Assembly (NCBI GenBank): GCA_964016885.1
Contig: CAXHJY010000471.1
Location: 1-8,505, forward strand
DNA length: 8,505 nucleotides
Reading direction: 5' to 3'
Source of the DNA: Eledone cirrhosa
Taxonomy: Eukaryota
How positions within the stretch are numbered: the stretch's first letter is position 1; each line of letters starts with the position of its first letter. Below the pieces are notes generated by a model. It was given only the letters and a program-made list of their open reading frames with translations. It did not search any database and was not told the origin of the DNA. Both the position numbers and the translations under genes were made by a program. Shown piece after piece: positions 1-8,505 of the stretch.

Positions 1-367
1 CGACTGACTATCATAAAGGATATTATGAAAACATGCATATATTCTTCGGTTGTCACAAATCTAACCAATACACGCAGTGGGCGCCACATTGATCTGTTCC
101 ATTTGTTCAAATGGATGCATGTTTTGTTGAACAAAAGGGAAATTACCATTCTTTTTATCATATACATGAGATCATCCTACTGACTGCTATTTTTTGTAGG
201 GTTAACATAATTCGTTTTCCCACGAAGAACAACTCACAATTACCTCTCCAGCTTGAATACTATATATGCTTCTTGTTTCAAGATTGGAAGTAGGCAATTT
301 ACTTGACAAAATGTGCAAGTGATTGATTATCGAAAAGATAATGTAATTCATGCTTTAAAGATAATTG

Positions 368-532
368 TTTCTACTTTCGGCACAAGGCCAGCAATTACCC
401 AGTACATTACTGGTACTTTATTTTATCGACGCCGTAAGGATGAAAGGCAAAGTTAACCTCGGCGGGATTTGAACTCAGACTGTAAAGGGACGTAACTATG
501 CTAGAAAGCATGGCGTCCAACCCTCTACCGAT
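368..532 (-). mobile_element. Degenerate tRNA-derived SINE (resembles the abundant octopus SINE family)
   Basis: The minus strand has a Pol III B-box-like GAGTTCAAATCCC (plus 464-476), followed by a core TTTGCCTTTCATCCTTACGGCGTCGATAAAATAAAGTACCAG. A homologous copy lies at 7021-7180. The family assignment is from recall, not a search. Confidence 0.75.
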
Positions 533-1150
533 GATAATGGTCCATTTCTGTTAGTGGCATGACGTAAAACTTTTCAGAAACTTGTCTCAGACGCATTTCA
601 CATTTGACTGACACTTCTTCATTGATTCATCATAAAGAAGCGAAACTTTAAAGCAGTTCTACTGTATAACAGGAATGTAAAACCATGTATCACCATTGTC
701 CATTCTGCTCTCTTAAAAGTAACATGATTTAACATGGATATACGGCTTCATATCAATAACCTATTCTGTATTTATTCATTTAGTTTTCATGTTATTTTAT
801 TTGCTTCGTTTTAGAGCAGAGATTATTTTAACGTGAAGTTTGGGGCCTGCTTGTGTAGTTCTAAATCTAATTTTCTGTGGTGGGTTTATATTTTGTGTCA
901 AATACTGCATGCACTTAAATGGTAAATGATAGTTAAAAAGACTTAAAACACCATTAAAATCTTTAAAATACCCATTAGAAATGCTTCTCAGACTCAGAGA
1001 ATATCAATCGATGGGTTATGGCACATGACTCAAAGATTTGTGCAGTTCTAAATGTACCTTAATATAGACCTTGTACTGGAATTCACGCGGGTACGAGAAA
1101 GCCTGCTTTCCGGCAGGTTATCTCAAAATGGGTGAAAACAGTAAGTTTAG

Positions 1151-1460
1151 AATTCATATTCCATTGGCGGGCCATTTTTGAACATTGGAACAGCCATTAG
1201 GGCCATTAATATTTATTAAGCACTATTACAAAGATTCACCACAACTTCTTTCCATAATATGGAACTGGGAAATTATAACACACATAACCCTATCAGTGAA
1301 GCCCTTTAGTATAGGTCAACTAACATAAAATTGTATTACGGCTACGAAACAAATTCTAAATAAGCCTACAAGGTGAACATTTAAAACGGTCATCACAGGC
1401 CACTCTGACTGGTATGGTGGGCCGGATTGTGGTTCGCGGGCTGCCAGTTGCACACTCCTG
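1151..1460. mobile_element. Possible decayed hAT (Charlie-type) non-autonomous DNA transposon
   Basis: The right end read on the minus strand is CAGGAGTGTGCAACTGGCAGCCCGCGAACCACAATCCGGCCC, like Charlie-type termini CAGGGGTG..AAC..CGGCCCGCGGGCCA. It is flanked by GTTTAGAT (1461-1468). GTTTAGAA at 1145-1152 precedes a subterminal-like TTCCATTGGCGGGCCA. The left TIR itself is missing. Confidence 0.4.
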
Positions 1461-1635
1461 GTTTAGATGTTTGAATGAACTGAAGATTGAAACAGTAACG
1501 TGGTTATAACTCTGGAGTATGTGCTGCTCATTTATACTGTTAATTATTATCATCCAAAGGCAAGTGTTGATTAATGTATTTGATTTCATTTTTATTTAGA
1601 CACATATGCGCACATACACAAACATTCACACACAA

Positions 1636-1675
1636 ACATACATACATACATACATACATACATACATACATACAT
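1636..1675. repeat. (ACAT)10 microsatellite; 3' tail/target of copy A1
   Basis: Read directly; preceded by a degenerate CA-rich tract from about 1600. Confidence 0.95.
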
Positions 1676-2281
1676 GGTGGCTGCCAACTCGTTTTCGAGT
1701 ACGGCCACTACTTTATATCCATGTAGGAGAACCCCTACGGATGCGCTGAACGAGTGTGACTTTTTAGTCCAGCCAGCGATTTGAAAACTCTGGTACAAAC
1801 ACTACACTTTTGACAATTATTGACACATAGTGCTGGGCCCATGGTACCATCTGACGACAAGTGCAGAGAGATCTCCAGATATAAAGCAATGCCTGTGCCG
1901 TGAAGCTTTTATAGTGAGCAAAGGCACTGCACAAAGCCAGCCCCACTCTCTTAACCAAGATGATATTTACCAAAAAGAAGAACAAGTCAACATCATTGGA
2001 TACCATCAGGGTTGCAGGTGTTATATCAGAGTTTTCCTTCTCCTAGAATTCTGCCTTGACAAAGGCTAAGGGCCCATCTCTCCCGGTGATTTTGGATGGC
2101 CATTGACTCTTAAGAGCTCCTTTGCCCTTTGACAGGTTTTGTTTTTAGTCCTGCAGGATGTCCAAAGTCACCCTCCTCACCAAGAAAACTTGGTGGGGTT
2201 GCCAGTTTAGTCGCCAACGACCCGACCATGAGACAGGTTGTACTGGGATACATGTTACCAGTAGCACCAACTGGTGACCTG
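1676..2281 (-). mobile_element. Non-autonomous RTE-derived element, family A, copy A1 (full length, 606 bp)
   Basis: The minus strand carries the RTE-type 5'UTR motif GCCTTTGTCAAGGC..CTAGGAGAAGGAAAACTCTGA, a C2H2 ORF tip, a 3' stem-loop and a (TATG)n tail. It differs from A3 by about 12 substitutions counted by eye. Confidence 0.85.
1735..1842 (-). pseudogene. C-terminal C2H2 zinc-finger remnant of an RTE ORF (35-codon micro-ORF) in A1
   Basis: Translates MGPALCVNNCQKCSVCTRVFKSLAGLKSHTRSAHP*, matching C-x2-C-x12-H-x4-H, with the stop codon just before the 3' stem-loop. Confidence 0.75.
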
Positions 2282-2297
2282 ACATACATACATACAT

Positions 2298-2606
2298 GGT
2301 GGCTGCCAACTCGTTTTCGAGTACGGCCACTACTTTATATCCATGTAGGAGAACCCCTACCGCTGCACTGAACGAGTGTGACTTTTTAGTCCAGCCAGCA
2401 ACTTGAAAACTCTGGTACAAACACCACACCCGTGACAATTATTGACATATAGTGCTGGGCCCATGGTACCATGTGACGACAAGTGCAGAGAGATCTCCAG
2501 ATATAAAGCAATGCCTGCGCCGTGAAGCTTTTATAGTGAGCAAAGGCACTGCACAAAGCCAGTCCCACTCTCTTAACCAAGATGATATTTACCAAAAAGA
2601 AGAACA
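2298..2606 (-). mobile_element. Family A copy A2, 5'-truncated (~309 bp)
   Basis: Matches the left half of A1 with private substitutions, then breaks at GAAGAACA directly into (ACAT)15. Separated from A1 by (ACAT)4 at 2282-2297. Confidence 0.85.
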
Positions 2607-2663
2607 TACATACATACATACATACATACATACATACATACATACATACATACATACATACAT
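2604..2663. repeat. (ACAT)15 linker microsatellite
   Basis: Read directly. Confidence 0.95.
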
Positions 2664-3232
2664 GATGATGGCTGCCTCCTCGTTATCGAGTATGGCCATT
2701 GCACGATATACCATTATTAATAATTATTAATTAATTCTATCGTGCAATGCCTGTGCGTGAAGATATTTTTTAAAGTGAGGAAAAACTGTGCACTGAGCCA
2801 ATCCCACTCTCTAAGCGACAGTAGCTATAACCCAAAAAGAAGAAAAGATCAACATCATCAGTTACTACTGAGTCGCAGGTTTTATATCAGAGTTATCCCA
2901 GTTTCCTGAGTTGCCTTCTCCTAGAAGAATGCCCTGAGAAAGGCTAGGGGTCTTTCATTCCCAATGGTTTAACCGCGCGATCGAGTGTCTAGCCCGACTA
3001 TTTCTATGTCCCCGTGCATATACATACGTATGTACATGTGTATATACATATTTACACACTTTTGGGTGGCCGTTGACTCTTATGAGTTCTTCCACCCTTT
3101 GTCAGGTTTTGTTTTTTGTCCTGCAGGGTGTCCAAATTTGGTGAGGTTGCCGGTTTAGTCGCCAACGACCCGACCATGCGACAGGTTATACTGAGTTACA
3201 TGTTACCAGTAGCACTCAAGAGTGACCCGGCA
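2664..3232 (-). mobile_element. Diverged related element, family B (5' domain, 5'UTR and 3' stem-loop, no zinc-finger remnant)
   Basis: Collinear with A over about 2744-2965 and 3060-3232, with many substitutions. It has its own 3' stem-loop (2668-2699), an extra segment at about 2971-3059 and a ~22-bp deletion near 3136. Confidence 0.8.
3148..3232 (-). ncRNA. 85-nt structured 5'-terminal RNA domain, family B version
   Basis: Closing stem UGCCGG/CCGGCA, with hairpins CACU/AGUG, UACUGG/UCAGUA and GUCG-UUGG-CGAC. Covaries with the family A version. Confidence 0.55.
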
Positions 3233-3249
3233 TACATACATACATACAT

Positions 3250-3855
3250 GGTGGCTGCCAACTCGTTTTCGAGTACGGCCACTACTTTATATCCATGTAG
3301 GAGAACCCCTACCGATGCGCTGAACGAGTGTGACTTTTTAGTCCAGCCAGTGACTTGAAAACTCTGGTACAAACACTACACTTGTGACAATTACTGACAC
3401 ATAGTGCTGGGCCCATGGTACCATGTGACGACAAGTGCAGAGAGATCTCCAGATATAAAGCAATGCCTGTGCCGTGAAGCTTTTATAGTGAGCAAAGGCA
3501 CTGCACAAAGCCAGTCCCACTCTCTTAACCAAGATGATATTTACCAAAAAGAAGAACAAGTCAACATCATTGGATACCATCAGGGTTGCAGGTGTTATAT
3601 CAGAGTTTTCCTTCTCCTAGAATTCTGCCTTGACAAAGGCTAAGGGGTCATCTCTCCCGGTGATTTTGGATGGCCATTGACTCTTAAGAGCTCCTTTGCC
3701 CTTTGACAGGTTTTGTTTTTAGTCCTGCAGGATGTCCAAAGTCACCCTCCTCACCAAGAAACCTTGGTGGGTTTGCCAGTTTAGTCGCCAACGACCCGAC
3801 CATGGGACAGGTTGTACTGGGATACATGTTACCAGTAGCACCAACTGGTGACCTG
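3250..3855 (-). mobile_element. Family A copy A3 (full length, 606 bp)
   Basis: Same architecture as A1; appears identical to A4 and A5. Confidence 0.88.
3309..3416 (-). pseudogene. C2H2 zinc-finger ORF remnant in A3 (also at 2357-2464, 4021-4128, 4725-4832, 5417-5524, 6174-6281)
   Basis: Translates MGPALCVSNCHKCSVCTRVFKSLAGLKSHTRSAHR*. The A2 copy has lost the last His (..SHTRSVQR*). Confidence 0.75.
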
Positions 3856-3858
3856 ACA
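3774..3858 (-). ncRNA. 85-nt structured 5'-terminal RNA domain, family A version (also at 2200-2284, 4486-4570, 5190-5274, 5882-5966)
   Basis: Closing stem UGUCAG/CUGGCA, with hairpins CACC/GGUG, UACUGG/CCAGUA and GUCG-UUGG-CGAC, followed by UAAA. Compensatory changes versus family B. Confidence 0.55.
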
Positions 3859-3961
3859 TAACATACATAACATACATACATACATACATACATACATACA
3901 TACATACATACATACATACATACATACATACATACATACATACATACATACATACATACAT
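3856..3961. repeat. Interrupted linker ACATA-ACAT-ACATA-(ACAT)23
   Basis: Read directly, 106 bp. Confidence 0.92.
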
Positions 3962-4567
3962 GGTGGCTGCCAACTCGTTTTCGAGTACGGCCACTACTTT
4001 ATATCCATGTAGGAGAACCCCTACCGATGCGCTGAACGAGTGTGACTTTTTAGTCCAGCCAGTGACTTGAAAACTCTGGTACAAACACTACACTTGTGAC
4101 AATTACTGACACATAGTGCTGGGCCCATGGTACCATGTGACGACAAGTGCAGAGAGATCTCCAGATATAAAGCAATGCCTGTGCCGTGAAGCTTTTATAG
4201 TGAGCAAAGGCACTGCACAAAGCCAGTCCCACTCTCTTAACCAAGATGATATTTACCAAAAAGAAGAACAAGTCAACATCATTGGATACCATCAGGGTTG
4301 CAGGTGTTATATCAGAGTTTTCCTTCTCCTAGAATTCTGCCTTGACAAAGGCTAAGGGGTCATCTCTCCCGGTGATTTTGGATGGCCATTGACTCTTAAG
4401 AGCTCCTTTGCCCTTTGACAGGTTTTGTTTTTAGTCCTGCAGGATGTCCAAAGTCACCCTCCTCACCAAGAAACCTTGGTGGGTTTGCCAGTTTAGTCGC
4501 CAACGACCCGACCATGGGACAGGTTGTACTGGGATACATGTTACCAGTAGCACCAACTGGTGACCTG
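3962..4567 (-). mobile_element. Family A copy A4 (full length)
   Basis: Appears identical to A3; the ORF-track translations match. Confidence 0.88.
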
Positions 4568-4665
4568 ACATAACATACATAACATACATACATACATACA
4601 TACATACATACATACATACATACATACATACATACATACATACATACATACATACATACATACAT
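4568..4665. repeat. Interrupted linker ACATA-ACAT-ACATA-(ACAT)21
   Basis: Read directly, 98 bp. Confidence 0.92.
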
Positions 4666-5271
4666 GGTGGCTGCCAACTCGTTTTCGAGTACGGCCACTA
4701 CTTTATATCCATGTAGGAGAACCCCTACCGATGCGCTGAACGAGTGTGACTTTTTAGTCCAGCCAGTGACTTGAAAACTCTGGTACAAACACTACACTTG
4801 TGACAATTACTGACACATAGTGCTGGGCCCATGGTACCATGTGACGACAAGTGCAGAGAGATCTCCAGATATAAAGCAATGCCTGTGCCGTGAAGCTTTT
4901 ATAGTGAGCAAAGGCACTGCACAAAGCCAGTCCCACTCTCTTAACCAAGATGATATTTACCAAAAAGAAGAACAAGTCAACATCATTGGATACCATCAGG
5001 GTTGCAGGTGTTATATCAGAGTTTTCCTTCTCCTAGAATTCTGCCTTGACAAAGGCTAAGGGGTCATCTCTCCCGGTGATTTTGGATGGCCATTGACTCT
5101 TAAGAGCTCCTTTGCCCTTTGACAGGTTTTGTTTTTAGTCCTGCAGGATGTCCAAAGTCACCCTCCTCACCAAGAAACCTTGGTGGGTTTGCCAGTTTAG
5201 TCGCCAACGACCCGACCATGGGACAGGTTGTACTGGGATACATGTTACCAGTAGCACCAACTGGTGACCTG
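4666..5271 (-). mobile_element. Family A copy A5 (full length)
   Basis: Appears identical to A3. Confidence 0.88.
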
Positions 5272-5357
5272 ACATAACATACATAACATACATACATACA
5301 TACATACATACATACATACATACATACATACATACATACATACATACATACATACAT
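5272..5357. repeat. Interrupted linker ACATA-ACAT-ACATA-(ACAT)18
   Basis: Read directly, 86 bp. Confidence 0.92.
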
Positions 5358-5963
5358 GGTGGCTGCCAACTCGTTTTCGAGTACGGCCACTACTTTATAT
5401 CCATGTAGGAGAACCCCTACCGATGCGCTGAACGAGTGTGACTTTTTAGTCCAGCCAGTGACTTGAAAACTCTGGTACAAACACTACACTTGTGACAATT
5501 ACTGACACATAGTGCTGGGCCCATGGTACCATGTGACGACAAGTGCAGAGAGATCTCCAGATATAAAGCAATGCCTGTGCCGTGAAGCTTTTATAGTGAG
5601 CAAAGGCACTGCACAAAGCCAGTCCCACTCTCTTAACCAAGATGATATTTACCAAAAAGAAGAACAAGTCAACATCATTGGATACCATCAGGGTTGCAGG
5701 TGTTATATCAGAGTTTTCCTTCTCCTAGAATTCTGCCTTGACAAAGGCTAAGGGGTCATCTCTCCCGGTGATTTTGGATGGCCATTGACTCTTAAGAGCT
5801 CCTTTGCCCTTTGACAGGTTTTGTTTTTAGTCCTGCAGGATGTCCAAAGTCACCCTCCTCACCAAGAAACCTTGGTGGGTTTGCCAGTTTAGTCGCCAAC
5901 GACCCGACCATAGGACAGGTTGTACTGGGATACATGTTACCAGTAGCACCAACTGGTGACCTG
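5358..5963 (-). mobile_element. Family A copy A6 (full length)
   Basis: Matches A3 except for G>A at 5912 (ACCATAGGAC versus ACCATGGGAC). Confidence 0.88.
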
Positions 5964-6114
5964 ACATAACATACATAACATACATAACATACATACATAC
6001 ATACATACATACATACATACATACATACATACATACATACATACATACATACATACATACATACATACATACATACATACATACATACATACATACATAC
6101 ATACATACATACAT
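5964..6114. repeat. Interrupted linker (ACATA-ACAT)2-ACATA-(ACAT)32
   Basis: Read directly, 151 bp. Confidence 0.92.
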
Positions 6115-6554
6115 GGTGGCTGCCAACTCGTTTTCGAGTACGGCCACTACTTTATATCCATGTAGGAGAACCCCTACCGATGCGCTGAACGAGTGTGACT
6201 TTTTAGTCCAGCCAGTGACTTGAAAACTCTGGTACAAACACTACACTTGTGACAATTACTGACACATAGTGCTGGGCCCATGGTACCATGTGACGACAAG
6301 TGCAGAGAGATCTCCAGATATAAAGCAATGCCTGTGCCGTGAAGCTTTTATAGTGAGCAAAGGCACTGCACAAAGCCAGTCCCACTCTCTTAACCAAGAT
6401 GATATTTACCAAAAAGAAGAACAAGTCAACATCATTGGATACCATCAGGGTTGCAGGTGTTATATCAGAGTTTTCCTTCTCCTAGAATTCTGCCTTGACA
6501 AAGGCTAAGGGGTCATCTCTCCCGGTGATTTTGGATGGCCATTGACTCTTAAGA
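6115..6554 (-). mobile_element. Family A copy A7, 5'-truncated (~440 bp, lacks the structured 5' domain)
   Basis: Matches A3 up to CTCTTAAGA, then runs into (TACA)n. Confidence 0.88.
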
Positions 6555-6590
6555 TACATACATACATACATATATACATACATACATACA

Positions 6591-6620
<30 letters not shown>
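6555..6620. repeat. (TACA)n microsatellite closing the array
   Basis: Read directly; contains one internal TATA variant unit. Confidence 0.93.
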
Positions 6621-6622
<2 letters not shown>

Positions 6623-6673
6623 CGCTTTTCCTTTCTTTGAAAGAAACGAAAGAGTACATAAACATTTATTTTT

Positions 6674-6675
<2 letters not shown>

Positions 6676-6738
<63 letters not shown>
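6676..6738. repeat. (GT)31 microsatellite
   Basis: Read directly. Confidence 0.97.
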
Positions 6739-6739
<1 letters not shown>

Positions 6740-7020
6740 ATTAATTATGAGAAAATTGTGATTTGAGTGAGAAGACGTCCGTTTAAAAGAAAAGCTGAAT
6801 ACAACAATATTCACTTACGTTCCAGTGATTCTTGTAGAATTCTAAAAGATCTCGACTGAAGATTCGGATTAACCATACACTGAAAGCATTCTAAATCTTG
6901 ATCAGAGGAATAAGACTTAGGTCTACTCTTAGTTTGTGGTGCAGGTTTCGGTGGAACTTTACTGAAATCCCTGTAACGAAAGAAATAAAATAAGAAATTG
7001 CCATATAAGTGATTTTTAAT

Positions 7021-7180
7021 TTAGGCACAATTTGTAAGGAATCGAAAATCGATTACATTGACTGGTACTTATTTTATCGACCTTGAAAGGATAAAAGGCA
7101 AAGTTGATCTCAGTTAAAATTGAATTTAAAATGTAAAGGCATTTTGTCCGACGGTTACCGATTCTGCTAATCCATCGCCA
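7021..7180 (-). mobile_element. Second, more decayed copy of the tRNA-derived SINE
   Basis: ACTGGTACTTATTTTATCGACCTTGAAAGGATAAAAGGCAAAGTTGATCTC aligns with about 409-460; the B box is degenerate. Confidence 0.7.
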
Positions 7181-7291
7181 TTTGCCTTATTTATATCATT
7201 AACATGTGTATTGAATTCACAACGGTAAATAACATGTCGGAATTATTTAAGAAATCTTAACACATTCATTACCATATTTCTAATTAAAAGG

Positions 7292-7415
7292 AACCTTTCA
7301 TCATAATTTAGATGAAAAACTTTGTGTCCTAATTACATCTGAAGTGAGCAAGTGACTTGTCATTCAGATGGTAATTAGGAACAAAGTTTCTCATCTAAAA
7401 TTATGATGGAAGGTT
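7292..7415. repeat. Long imperfect palindrome (~60-bp arms, 3-nt loop), MITE-like foldback
   Basis: The left arm AACCTTTCATCATAATTTAGATGAAAAACTTTGTGTCCTAATTACATCTGAAGTGAGCAAG matches the reverse complement of the right arm, AACCTTCCATCATAATTTTAGATGAGAAACTTTGTTCCTAATTACCATCTGAATGACAAG. The loop is TGA at 7353-7355. Confidence 0.85.
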
Positions 7416-7704
7416 TTTAAATAAATATAAACACTCTAGAATAAATAGTTTTCTGTCATACAACTAGAGGCGGTTTCAGATGCTTTGGTTTAAAAAGTTC
7501 TAAAATAGGTGTTTTACCAGGTAAAACTAAAATCCATGTTTCAAATGTATAGGTGAAATAGAGACGAAGGAGAAAATAATAACTCTAAGAGACTTGTGAG
7601 ACACTTTTTATTGAGACACAACAATCCTATTGTCATATTTTATGACCAACTATATAATCTATTATTTAGGCTTGGCTGAGTTCATTATACATGAAAGCTA
7701 GGCA

Positions 7705-8440
7705 AGAGGCTGAAAATATCGTCTTGGGTGTATTCACCTTAATCCCGAACACAACAAAATTCAATGCTCTAAGCCCTCCCCGTTCTAAAAATTGTTCACT
7801 TATAGTGGCGTTGCCTCAGTTTAGGTGAAGGCTCAATTCACAAGCTCTTCCACCTTCCAAGCTACAACAGATTCTTTTGGGTCTTTGTCAAAAAAATTCT
7901 TTTCAACTTTGCGGGATTCTCCTTTCATCTACTTCTTAATCATGGGATTTCTGTGAGCGATATACCCGAGAAGGAAGCCACTACCGGCTTTGCATCGAAC
8001 TCGGCAATTCATAAATATCTCAATCTACTTCTCCAGGCTCCTCATTGAGAACAAACACGCGTGTATCTTTTCAAGCCAGCTCAGTCAATTTCCATTACTC
8101 TCAAACAACGAACCTTAATGCTAGCCCCTATACTCCTCAAATTCTCCAATCTCTCTCTCTCTCTCTCTCTCGCTCTCTACCTTTGGAAACACACTATGGT
8201 ATATCACATTCCAAACGACGTCACAATCCCTTTTGTCTGTCAATTACCATTCTTTCGTATTCACTTTCAATATCGCCACCTTTAATCTCTCTCCGTCTTT
8301 AACGGCCACCAGTATAGCTATCAGATCTACTTTAAGCTTACATACACTCGAACGTGTCCTCCTGTCAAAACTGCCAGTATGTGGCCTTCACACACCTCAT
8401 ATCTCTTGTATTGGTAACTTCCTGTCAGATCGTAATCCGG
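7705..8440 (+). pseudogene. Heavily decayed LINE ORF2 (tether and N-terminal reverse-transcriptase region; CR1/Jockey-group-like, not RTE)
   Basis: Ordered fragments across frames: RFFWVFVKKILFNFAGFSF..PEKEA..FASNSA, LKQRTLMLAPILLKFSNLSL..WKHTMVYHIP, VNYHSFVFT (cf. NYRPIALT), NGHQYSY..RST (cf. DHQYGFR..RST) and VLLSKLPVCGLH..ISCIGNFLSDR (cf. ALLSKLPSYG..ISSFLSDR). There are frameshifts and stops, and most of the LDISKAFD motif is missing. Confidence 0.75.
8150..8178. repeat. (TC)n microsatellite within the LINE relic
   Basis: Read directly: (TC)11 plus a short degenerate extension. Confidence 0.9.
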
Positions 8441-8505
8441 GCCTTTGCTAATGAAACTCTCCTATGGCAAACATTAAAATAACGTTACAGACATTATATA
8501 ACAAC

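Follow-up and report, generated by a model that had tools for sequence, protein, structure and literature searches.

An 8,505-nt stretch of Eledone cirrhosa DNA (assembly GCA_964016885.1, contig CAXHJY010000471.1, positions 1-8,505; hereafter the window) carries, at positions 1676-6553, an array of eight short retroelement units, all on the minus strand and arranged head to tail, with (ACAT)n between them and on both flanks. Seven of the units belong to a 606-bp family, designated A, and one to a related family, B. Family A has the anatomy of a bipartite non-autonomous element derived from RTE, a clade of long interspersed nuclear elements (LINEs). At least four lineages share the one tract, and five neighboring units of a single lineage are nearly identical. 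We lean toward a two-stage history for the array, in which insertions targeted to the repeat would have stacked the lineages and local duplication by unequal exchange would then have multiplied one of them. The analysis of the units centers on this one locus.

The unit alignments bear out the description of eight co-oriented units in (ACAT)n given in a first-pass annotation of this DNA. Full-length A copies (U1, U4, U5, U6, and U7) and B share one homologous start position, and U2 and U8 are A copies truncated at the 5' end, with microhomology to the repeat at the truncation point of 3 nt for U2 and 1 nt for U8. The 3' end is complete and a short-repeat tail is present in all eight; 5' truncation is found in 2/8 units and 3' truncation in 0/8, which agrees with the earlier statement that only 5' ends are truncated. 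Orientation relative to the repeat strand is fixed at this locus, with repeat on both sides of every unit (8/8). The features of the array, all on the minus strand, are as follows.

1596..1675 (-): U1 tail of (ATGT)10, continuing into AC-rich sequence that has decayed, presumed left part of the original microsatellite (sequence inspection)
1676..2281 (-): U1, full-length family A, lineage A1, 12/606 differences from U4 (unit alignment)
2282..2297 (-): spacer, pure (ATGT)4 (sequence)
2298..2603 (-): U2, 306 bp, 5'-truncated A copy beginning at A position 301, lineage A2 (unit alignment)
2604..2663 (-): spacer, pure (ATGT)15, tail of B (sequence)
2664..3230 (-): B, 567 bp, related bipartite family (unit alignment and folding)
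3231..3249 (-): spacer, (ATGT)4ATG, tail of U4 (sequence)
3250..3855 (-): U4, 606 bp, full-length A, reference unit and first of the clonal block (unit alignment)
3856..3961 (-): spacer, 106 nt, (ATGT)23 plus the shared interrupted motif (sequence)
3962..4567 (-): U5, 606 bp, same as U4 at every base (unit alignment)
4568..4665 (-): spacer, 98 nt, with the shared interrupted motif (sequence)
4666..5271 (-): U6, 606 bp, same as U4 at every base (unit alignment)
5272..5357 (-): spacer, 86 nt, with the shared interrupted motif (sequence)
5358..5963 (-): U7, 606 bp, single substitution relative to U4 (unit alignment)
5964..6114 (-): spacer, 151 nt, interrupted motif plus one additional repeat (sequence)
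6115..6553 (-): U8, 439 bp, 5'-truncated, beginning at A position 168, 0/439 differences from U4 (unit alignment)
6554..6620 (-): outer (ATGT)n tract 5' of U8, presumed pre-existing target (sequence)

The units had also been described as joined only by (ACAT)n. The 5' junctions of U1, U2, B, and U8 are free of the interrupted motif, but the four spacers 5' of U4-U7 are not pure (ACAT)n.

Anatomy of families A and B

Within the reference unit U4, five features can be located.

3261..3274 (-): 3' terminal hairpin, 5-bp stem and 4-nt loop, with 4 bp of the stem kept in B (folding and alignment)
3309..3392 (-): coding remnant of a C-terminal C2H2 zinc finger with its stop codon, and after it a 3' untranslated region (UTR) of 59 nt (Pfam zf-C2H2 search)
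3484..3525 (-): second motif resembling RTE 5'-UTRs, as in the RTE-1_PSi and RTE-3_AMi rows (comparison by eye)
3591..3661 (-): conserved RTE 5'-UTR domain of the AviRTE / RTE-3_BF / Ceph-SINE type, with a 23-nt core at 3599-3621 (alignment comparison)
3770..3858 (-): 5' terminal region, predicted multi-branch fold common to B (RNA folding)

On sequence homology, the 5' part of A is of RTE origin. A positions 195-265 match the RTE 5'-UTR domain that Kojima 2018 (PMC5786205) describes as conserved, and 23 nt of A exactly match OegopSINE rows that are aligned with AviRTE and RTE-3_BF in the alignments of that paper. With a pattern made from this 23-nt core we fetched 144 loci, 120 from metagenomes and 24 from two host-contaminated metagenome-assembled genomes (MAGs), and eight domain matches among them were flagged for a long frame or a reverse transcriptase (RT) or endonuclease motif downstream. 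Both of the two that were scanned (L048 and L047) have a single open reading frame (ORF) with apurinic-type endonuclease (APE) and RT just downstream of the 5'-UTR domain (RVT_1, E 3e-27 and 8e-23). The first of these, on a metagenome contig (L048, 38-3169, minus strand), has an intact 1,043-aa APE-RT frame, carries the 5'-UTR domain in duplicate, and ends in (TGA)n; the match of A to it reaches about 40 nt 5' of the fetch seed, and its score is partly circular since the seed selected the loci.

The 3' part of A is presumably also of RTE origin, judging from its anatomy: the finger remnant, a feature that the first-pass annotation had overlooked; a stop codon 59 nt ahead of the tail; the terminal hairpin; and the tail itself. 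The 3' stem-loop and short-repeat tail reported earlier are both present, with (ATGT)n tails in 8/8 units. The proposal of an RTE-derived, bipartite, non-autonomous element is therefore supported by homology in its 5' half and by anatomy in its 3' half, and no partner sharing both ends was found. No open frame longer than 92 aa lies fully inside one A or B unit, so that neither family encodes APE-RT. We rejected a tRNA-derived short interspersed nuclear element (SINE) of the Ceph-SINE type as the identity of A, since no tRNA gene was called for a tRNA-like head and the matches of A to SINE-bearing contigs are confined to A positions 213-278.

Family B is a bipartite element distinct from A. 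When A positions 1-396 are divided into four consecutive stretches, B is 85%, 85%, 78%, and 70% identical to A, with an internal insert in B and about 22 nt of the A 5' region missing from it. It is without the 3' coding remnant of A and closes in a distinct 80-nt end that aligns to A only over about 45 terminal nt. A long AT-rich hairpin at about 2690-2745 (folding z score, -3.1) replaces the finger remnant, and this position suggests that the internal junction of B arose by fold-back.

Several lineages in one microsatellite tract

The divergence among the A lineages is only 2-4%, with U2 differing from U4 at 10/306 positions and from U1 at 13/306. States are shared by U1 and U2 at A positions 462 and 505 and by U1 and B at 84 and 208. 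A single tract thus holds A1 (U1), A2 (U2), B, and A3 (U4-U8), set apart by 10-13 differences and by the B family, in keeping with the earlier count of at least four lineages. As a separate observation, 4/8 of the private changes of U2 are A-to-G on the element strand, three of them within 7 nt, and adenosine-to-inosine RNA editing before reverse transcription would be possible; the cases are few.

Every junction falls in the repeat, though the repeat makes up only 643 of the 4,985 bp of the array, and no unit lies inside another. The outer junction is the informative one, because the internal spacers are automatically the tail of a neighbor. The outer (ATGT)n tract at 6554-6620 is not followed by any element 3' end. 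This agrees with a target that was there beforehand and favors insertion of the elements into their own tail repeat. Four separate insertions, approximately, into one (ACAT)n tract are likely to have stacked the four lineages. RTE-type insertion by target-primed reverse transcription is an established process, and we infer a first stage in which an autonomous RTE LINE would have copied the RNAs of A1, A2, A3, and B in this way into the tract. The (AUGU)n tail of the RNA would pair with the nicked (ACAT)n strand, fixing both site and orientation, and the fresh repeat left by every insertion would serve as the next site. The idea that the tail is also the target, put forward in the first-pass annotation, is supported at this one locus by four co-oriented lineages, none nested, and by an outer tract that does not serve as the tail of any element. 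Its corollary, that each insertion recreates a landing site from which the locus grows, may account for no more than four or five of the eight units; for the clonal block of five copies, duplication or a single event is required.

Origin of the U4-U8 block

U4-U8 (3250-6553) show one base difference in 2,863, where about 29 changes would be expected (Poisson) if the units had been drawn from a pool 2% apart. A stronger sign of clonality than this base count is the interrupted motif that, on the element strand, closes the spacers 5' of U4, U5, U6, and U7 and is not seen at the 5' junctions of U1, U2, B, and U8 (4/4 internal and 0/4 other 5' junctions); it has three interruptions at U7 and two at U4-U6. 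The spacers that bear it differ in length by up to 65 nt. Because of the single base difference and the common interrupted spacer, U4-U8 is likely to be one clonal amplification rather than five insertions. We infer a second stage in which neighboring A3 copies, the truncated U8 and a full unit, would have misaligned over their common 439 bp and tail. Unequal exchange would then have brought the full unit, along with its interrupted spacer, to a copy number of four, with slippage altering the spacer lengths. Such a dimer, expanded in this way, would give the observed pattern, for which the R1 tandem array is a precedent, described as double insertion and then unequal exchange with identical target spacers; jockey dimers are a related case (McGurk and Barbash 2018, PMC5932611).

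Several points weigh against the two-stage history. RTE insertion is described in PMC2887409 as not sequence-specific, and RTEs as microsatellite seeders. (ATGT)4 occurred within 400 nt upstream in 0/179 domain matches in distant relatives, which are of other families, a single locus picked as striking cannot show a preference, and a target-site duplication is unreadable inside a microsatellite. The finger match of A (zf-C2H2, E 6e-5, 23.7 bits) is under the Pfam cut-off of 25.2. Protein searches for a partner with the 57-aa finger frame returned only multi-finger proteins or nothing (136 matches, none with an RT motif), and among further finger-frame searches one gave a candidate with no score and another gave zero candidates. 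In the 144 fetched loci, unit A matched only around the short 5'-UTR domain, and its 3' end was found in 0/175 loci. Finally, the single truncated copy of the block is the outermost, which fits one long reverse-transcription event equally well.

Other partner searches gave little more. The finger frame had one match in the two MAGs (E 1.08), the A 5'-domain pattern had none in metagenome or viral contigs, and the UTR-domain pattern had none in viral contigs; a motif search of the supplement files of PMC9115989, other than the fasta archives and files 6-8, yielded 0 matches. No autonomous RTE LINE partner of A was found by any search, and the postulated partner with both ends of A around an APE-RT ORF is missing from the 136 protein matches and the 175 loci alike.

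A single reverse-transcription event for U4-U8, from read-through RNA in multimeric form, from circular RNA, or by repeated template jumps, and stopping in U8, with U1, U2, and B inserted separately, is rather unlikely but is the strongest of the alternatives. It would place the only truncated member of the block, which has no differences from U4, at the outermost 5' position, where cDNA synthesis would end, and longer-than-unit cDNA from RNA circles has been proposed for retrozymes (PMC7761336). The variable spacer lengths speak against it, as does the lack of hammerhead, twister, or hepatitis delta virus (HDV)-like matches. The predicted 5' fold cuts both ways: RNAalifold finds two double-sided changes between A and B, with a closing helix different from that of the hand-drawn structure, but the fold is not significant over all rows. 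Folded as single sequences, the 5' regions score within the ordinary range (z -0.3 to -1.7). Stability is modest for the A+B consensus (z -2.05, with 16/500 shuffles equally stable) and unremarkable for the consensus of all four rows (z -1.06, 70/500). The hand-drawn structure keeps 23/23 pairs, yet 145/500 shuffles match it. On these figures, the 5' structured domain proposed in the first-pass annotation is no more than suggestive.

HDV-like and P1-less twister ribozymes are known from RTEs (PMC8501958). The Rfam search (1-4000) gave no ribozyme family at E<=10; the matches that did appear were microRNA models driven by the microsatellite, under their gathering scores, and were rejected. Our own HDV-like descriptor, which had no positive control, gave one strict match fully inside the microsatellite and loose matches absent from B, and our twister descriptor, likewise without a positive control, matched in 0/3 regions. 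By Rfam and these uncalibrated descriptors, no hammerhead, HDV-like, or twister motif is common to A and B. The 5' fold predicted for A and B is a lead, suggestive only, with no known ribozyme match. The interrupted spacer motif (3856-3870) is also complementary over 6-8 nt to a loop of the predicted fold (3824-3831), maybe by chance, both sequences being ACAT-like.

Eight independent insertions, as modeled in the first-pass annotation, with five from one very active master whose RNA carries the interrupted leader, seem improbable. The tract is evidently a repeat target, the spacer lengths vary, and a young master yields identical copies, so that the Poisson figure is compatible with this reading; the interrupted motif is nonetheless absent 5' of full-length U1 and of B, and five consecutive insertions of the same lineage would have to lie together without any A1, A2, or B unit between them. 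We give similarly little credence to two insertions only, one of A and one of B, with U1 and U2 as earlier tandem duplicates since diverged at the site and the truncations as spacer-unit deletions. The low divergence and the 3-nt microhomology of U2 are compatible with such a history, but U2 is closer to U4 than to its neighbor U1, no 3' deletions are seen among the eight units, and B must still land in the repeat. An assembly artefact would explain identical U4-U6 in this assembled sequence, but differing spacers, an additional motif repeat, and the private base of U7 are unlike software duplication and make it very improbable.

Distribution, flanks, and relation to known elements

The occurrence of the unit outside this assembly was assessed in sequencing runs with 60 31-mers sampled from the unit. 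At least half of the unit 31-mers were present in 20/24 listed runs, from 16 studies and 17 coded organism labels; with the possible source set aside, 15 studies and 16 organism labels remain, with 31-mer shares of 0.50-0.78. Sequence nearly identical to the unit is thus present in the 15 other studies, and the unit is not confined to this assembly; copy positions are not visible in such data. Recurrence under other labels may reflect close relatives, predators, parasites, mixed samples, or horizontal transfer, and the last of these, though considered, is not claimed. No RNA dataset was among the listed runs holding unit 31-mers, which is uninformative on expression. Unlikely, in our estimation, is a more far-reaching scenario, in which A homes to its own tail repeat, bears an undescribed self-processing 5' RNA fold, inserts as multimers from circular or read-through RNA as a one-step satellite seed, and has recently spread between the species under the 17 labels.

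In the flanks of the array, two decayed SINE-like copies with a B-box-like motif lie in like orientation at 360-490 and 7004-7139; they resemble the common octopus SINE and may be copies of it. A palindromic element of about 124 bp at 7292-7415, whose nested arms measure 18 and 37 nt, resembles a miniature inverted-repeat transposable element, and the region 7770-8505 (minus strand) is purine-rich, with broken frames resembling a decayed LINE endonuclease by eye. Six flank frames had no Pfam match, those at 7770-8505 being plus-strand frames only. Contigs of two bacterial MAGs (L121-L144; G001 and G002) are dense with Sepioth-SINE-like repeats and for that reason probably represent residual cephalopod host DNA in the bins; one of them, L121, has a tandem run of the 5'-UTR domain with 123-bp spacing.

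Waldo, Mino, Kibi, and Koshi are microsatellite-targeting LINEs. As in the present array, the simple repeat survives on either side of the insert in such elements; unlike A, they belong to other clades. Two further LINEs of this kind, Dong at (TAA)n and TRAS at (TTAGG)n, are cited in PMC2887409. The bipartite RTEs presented in PMC5786205 (Bov-A, RTESINE1/2, RTE-N2_Lch, and WALLSI3) resemble A in joining a 5'-UTR part to the extreme 3' end, without an ORF and with a microsatellite tail, and have the conserved RTE 5'-UTR domain in common with it; by the descriptions given there, A differs in its length (606 bp), its C2H2 remnant, and its eight-unit, two-family array in its own tail repeat. Compared with the R1 tandem and jockey dimers as portrayed in PMC5932611, the present array has the element's own tail microsatellite as spacer, a non-autonomous element, and a minimum of four lineages.

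RTE-BovB is reported to have expanded in octopuses (PMC8967140), and the octopus element RTE-2_OV (Petrosino 2022, PMC9115989) is an RTE with a microsatellite 3' end and a C2H2 finger, called rare in RTEs. The text of PMC9115989 puts that finger N-terminal and the endonuclease C-terminal; by this published description, the basis of our comparison, the microsatellite of RTE-2_OV begins at the ORF end, whereas A has its 59-nt 3' UTR. Metazoan non-LTR (long terminal repeat) retrozymes are described as tandem non-coding retro-units of 150-300 bp with type I hammerheads (PMC7761336); A is like them in its tandem non-coding units and unlike them in having no hammerhead match. We rejected a retrozyme identity for A, there being no hammerhead, HDV-like, or twister match in the Rfam search (1-4000) and none common to A and B by the uncalibrated descriptors.

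Bipartite RTEs, RTE microsatellite tails, repeat-targeting LINEs, and double insertion with expansion are each already known. Searches of the open-licence literature, mostly at the level of listings and with Repbase and Dfam outside the scope, turned up no report of an RTE-derived family stacked in its own tail repeat. Because every ingredient is known from other elements, the advance would be more than moderate only if genome-wide targeting, multimer insertion, or a new 5' ribozyme were to hold. If a non-autonomous RTE pair does home to the repeat that it deposits, the outcome would be a feedback loop, from tail to target to copy to expansion, and this locus would capture both stages of the path from transposon to satellite within 5 kb.

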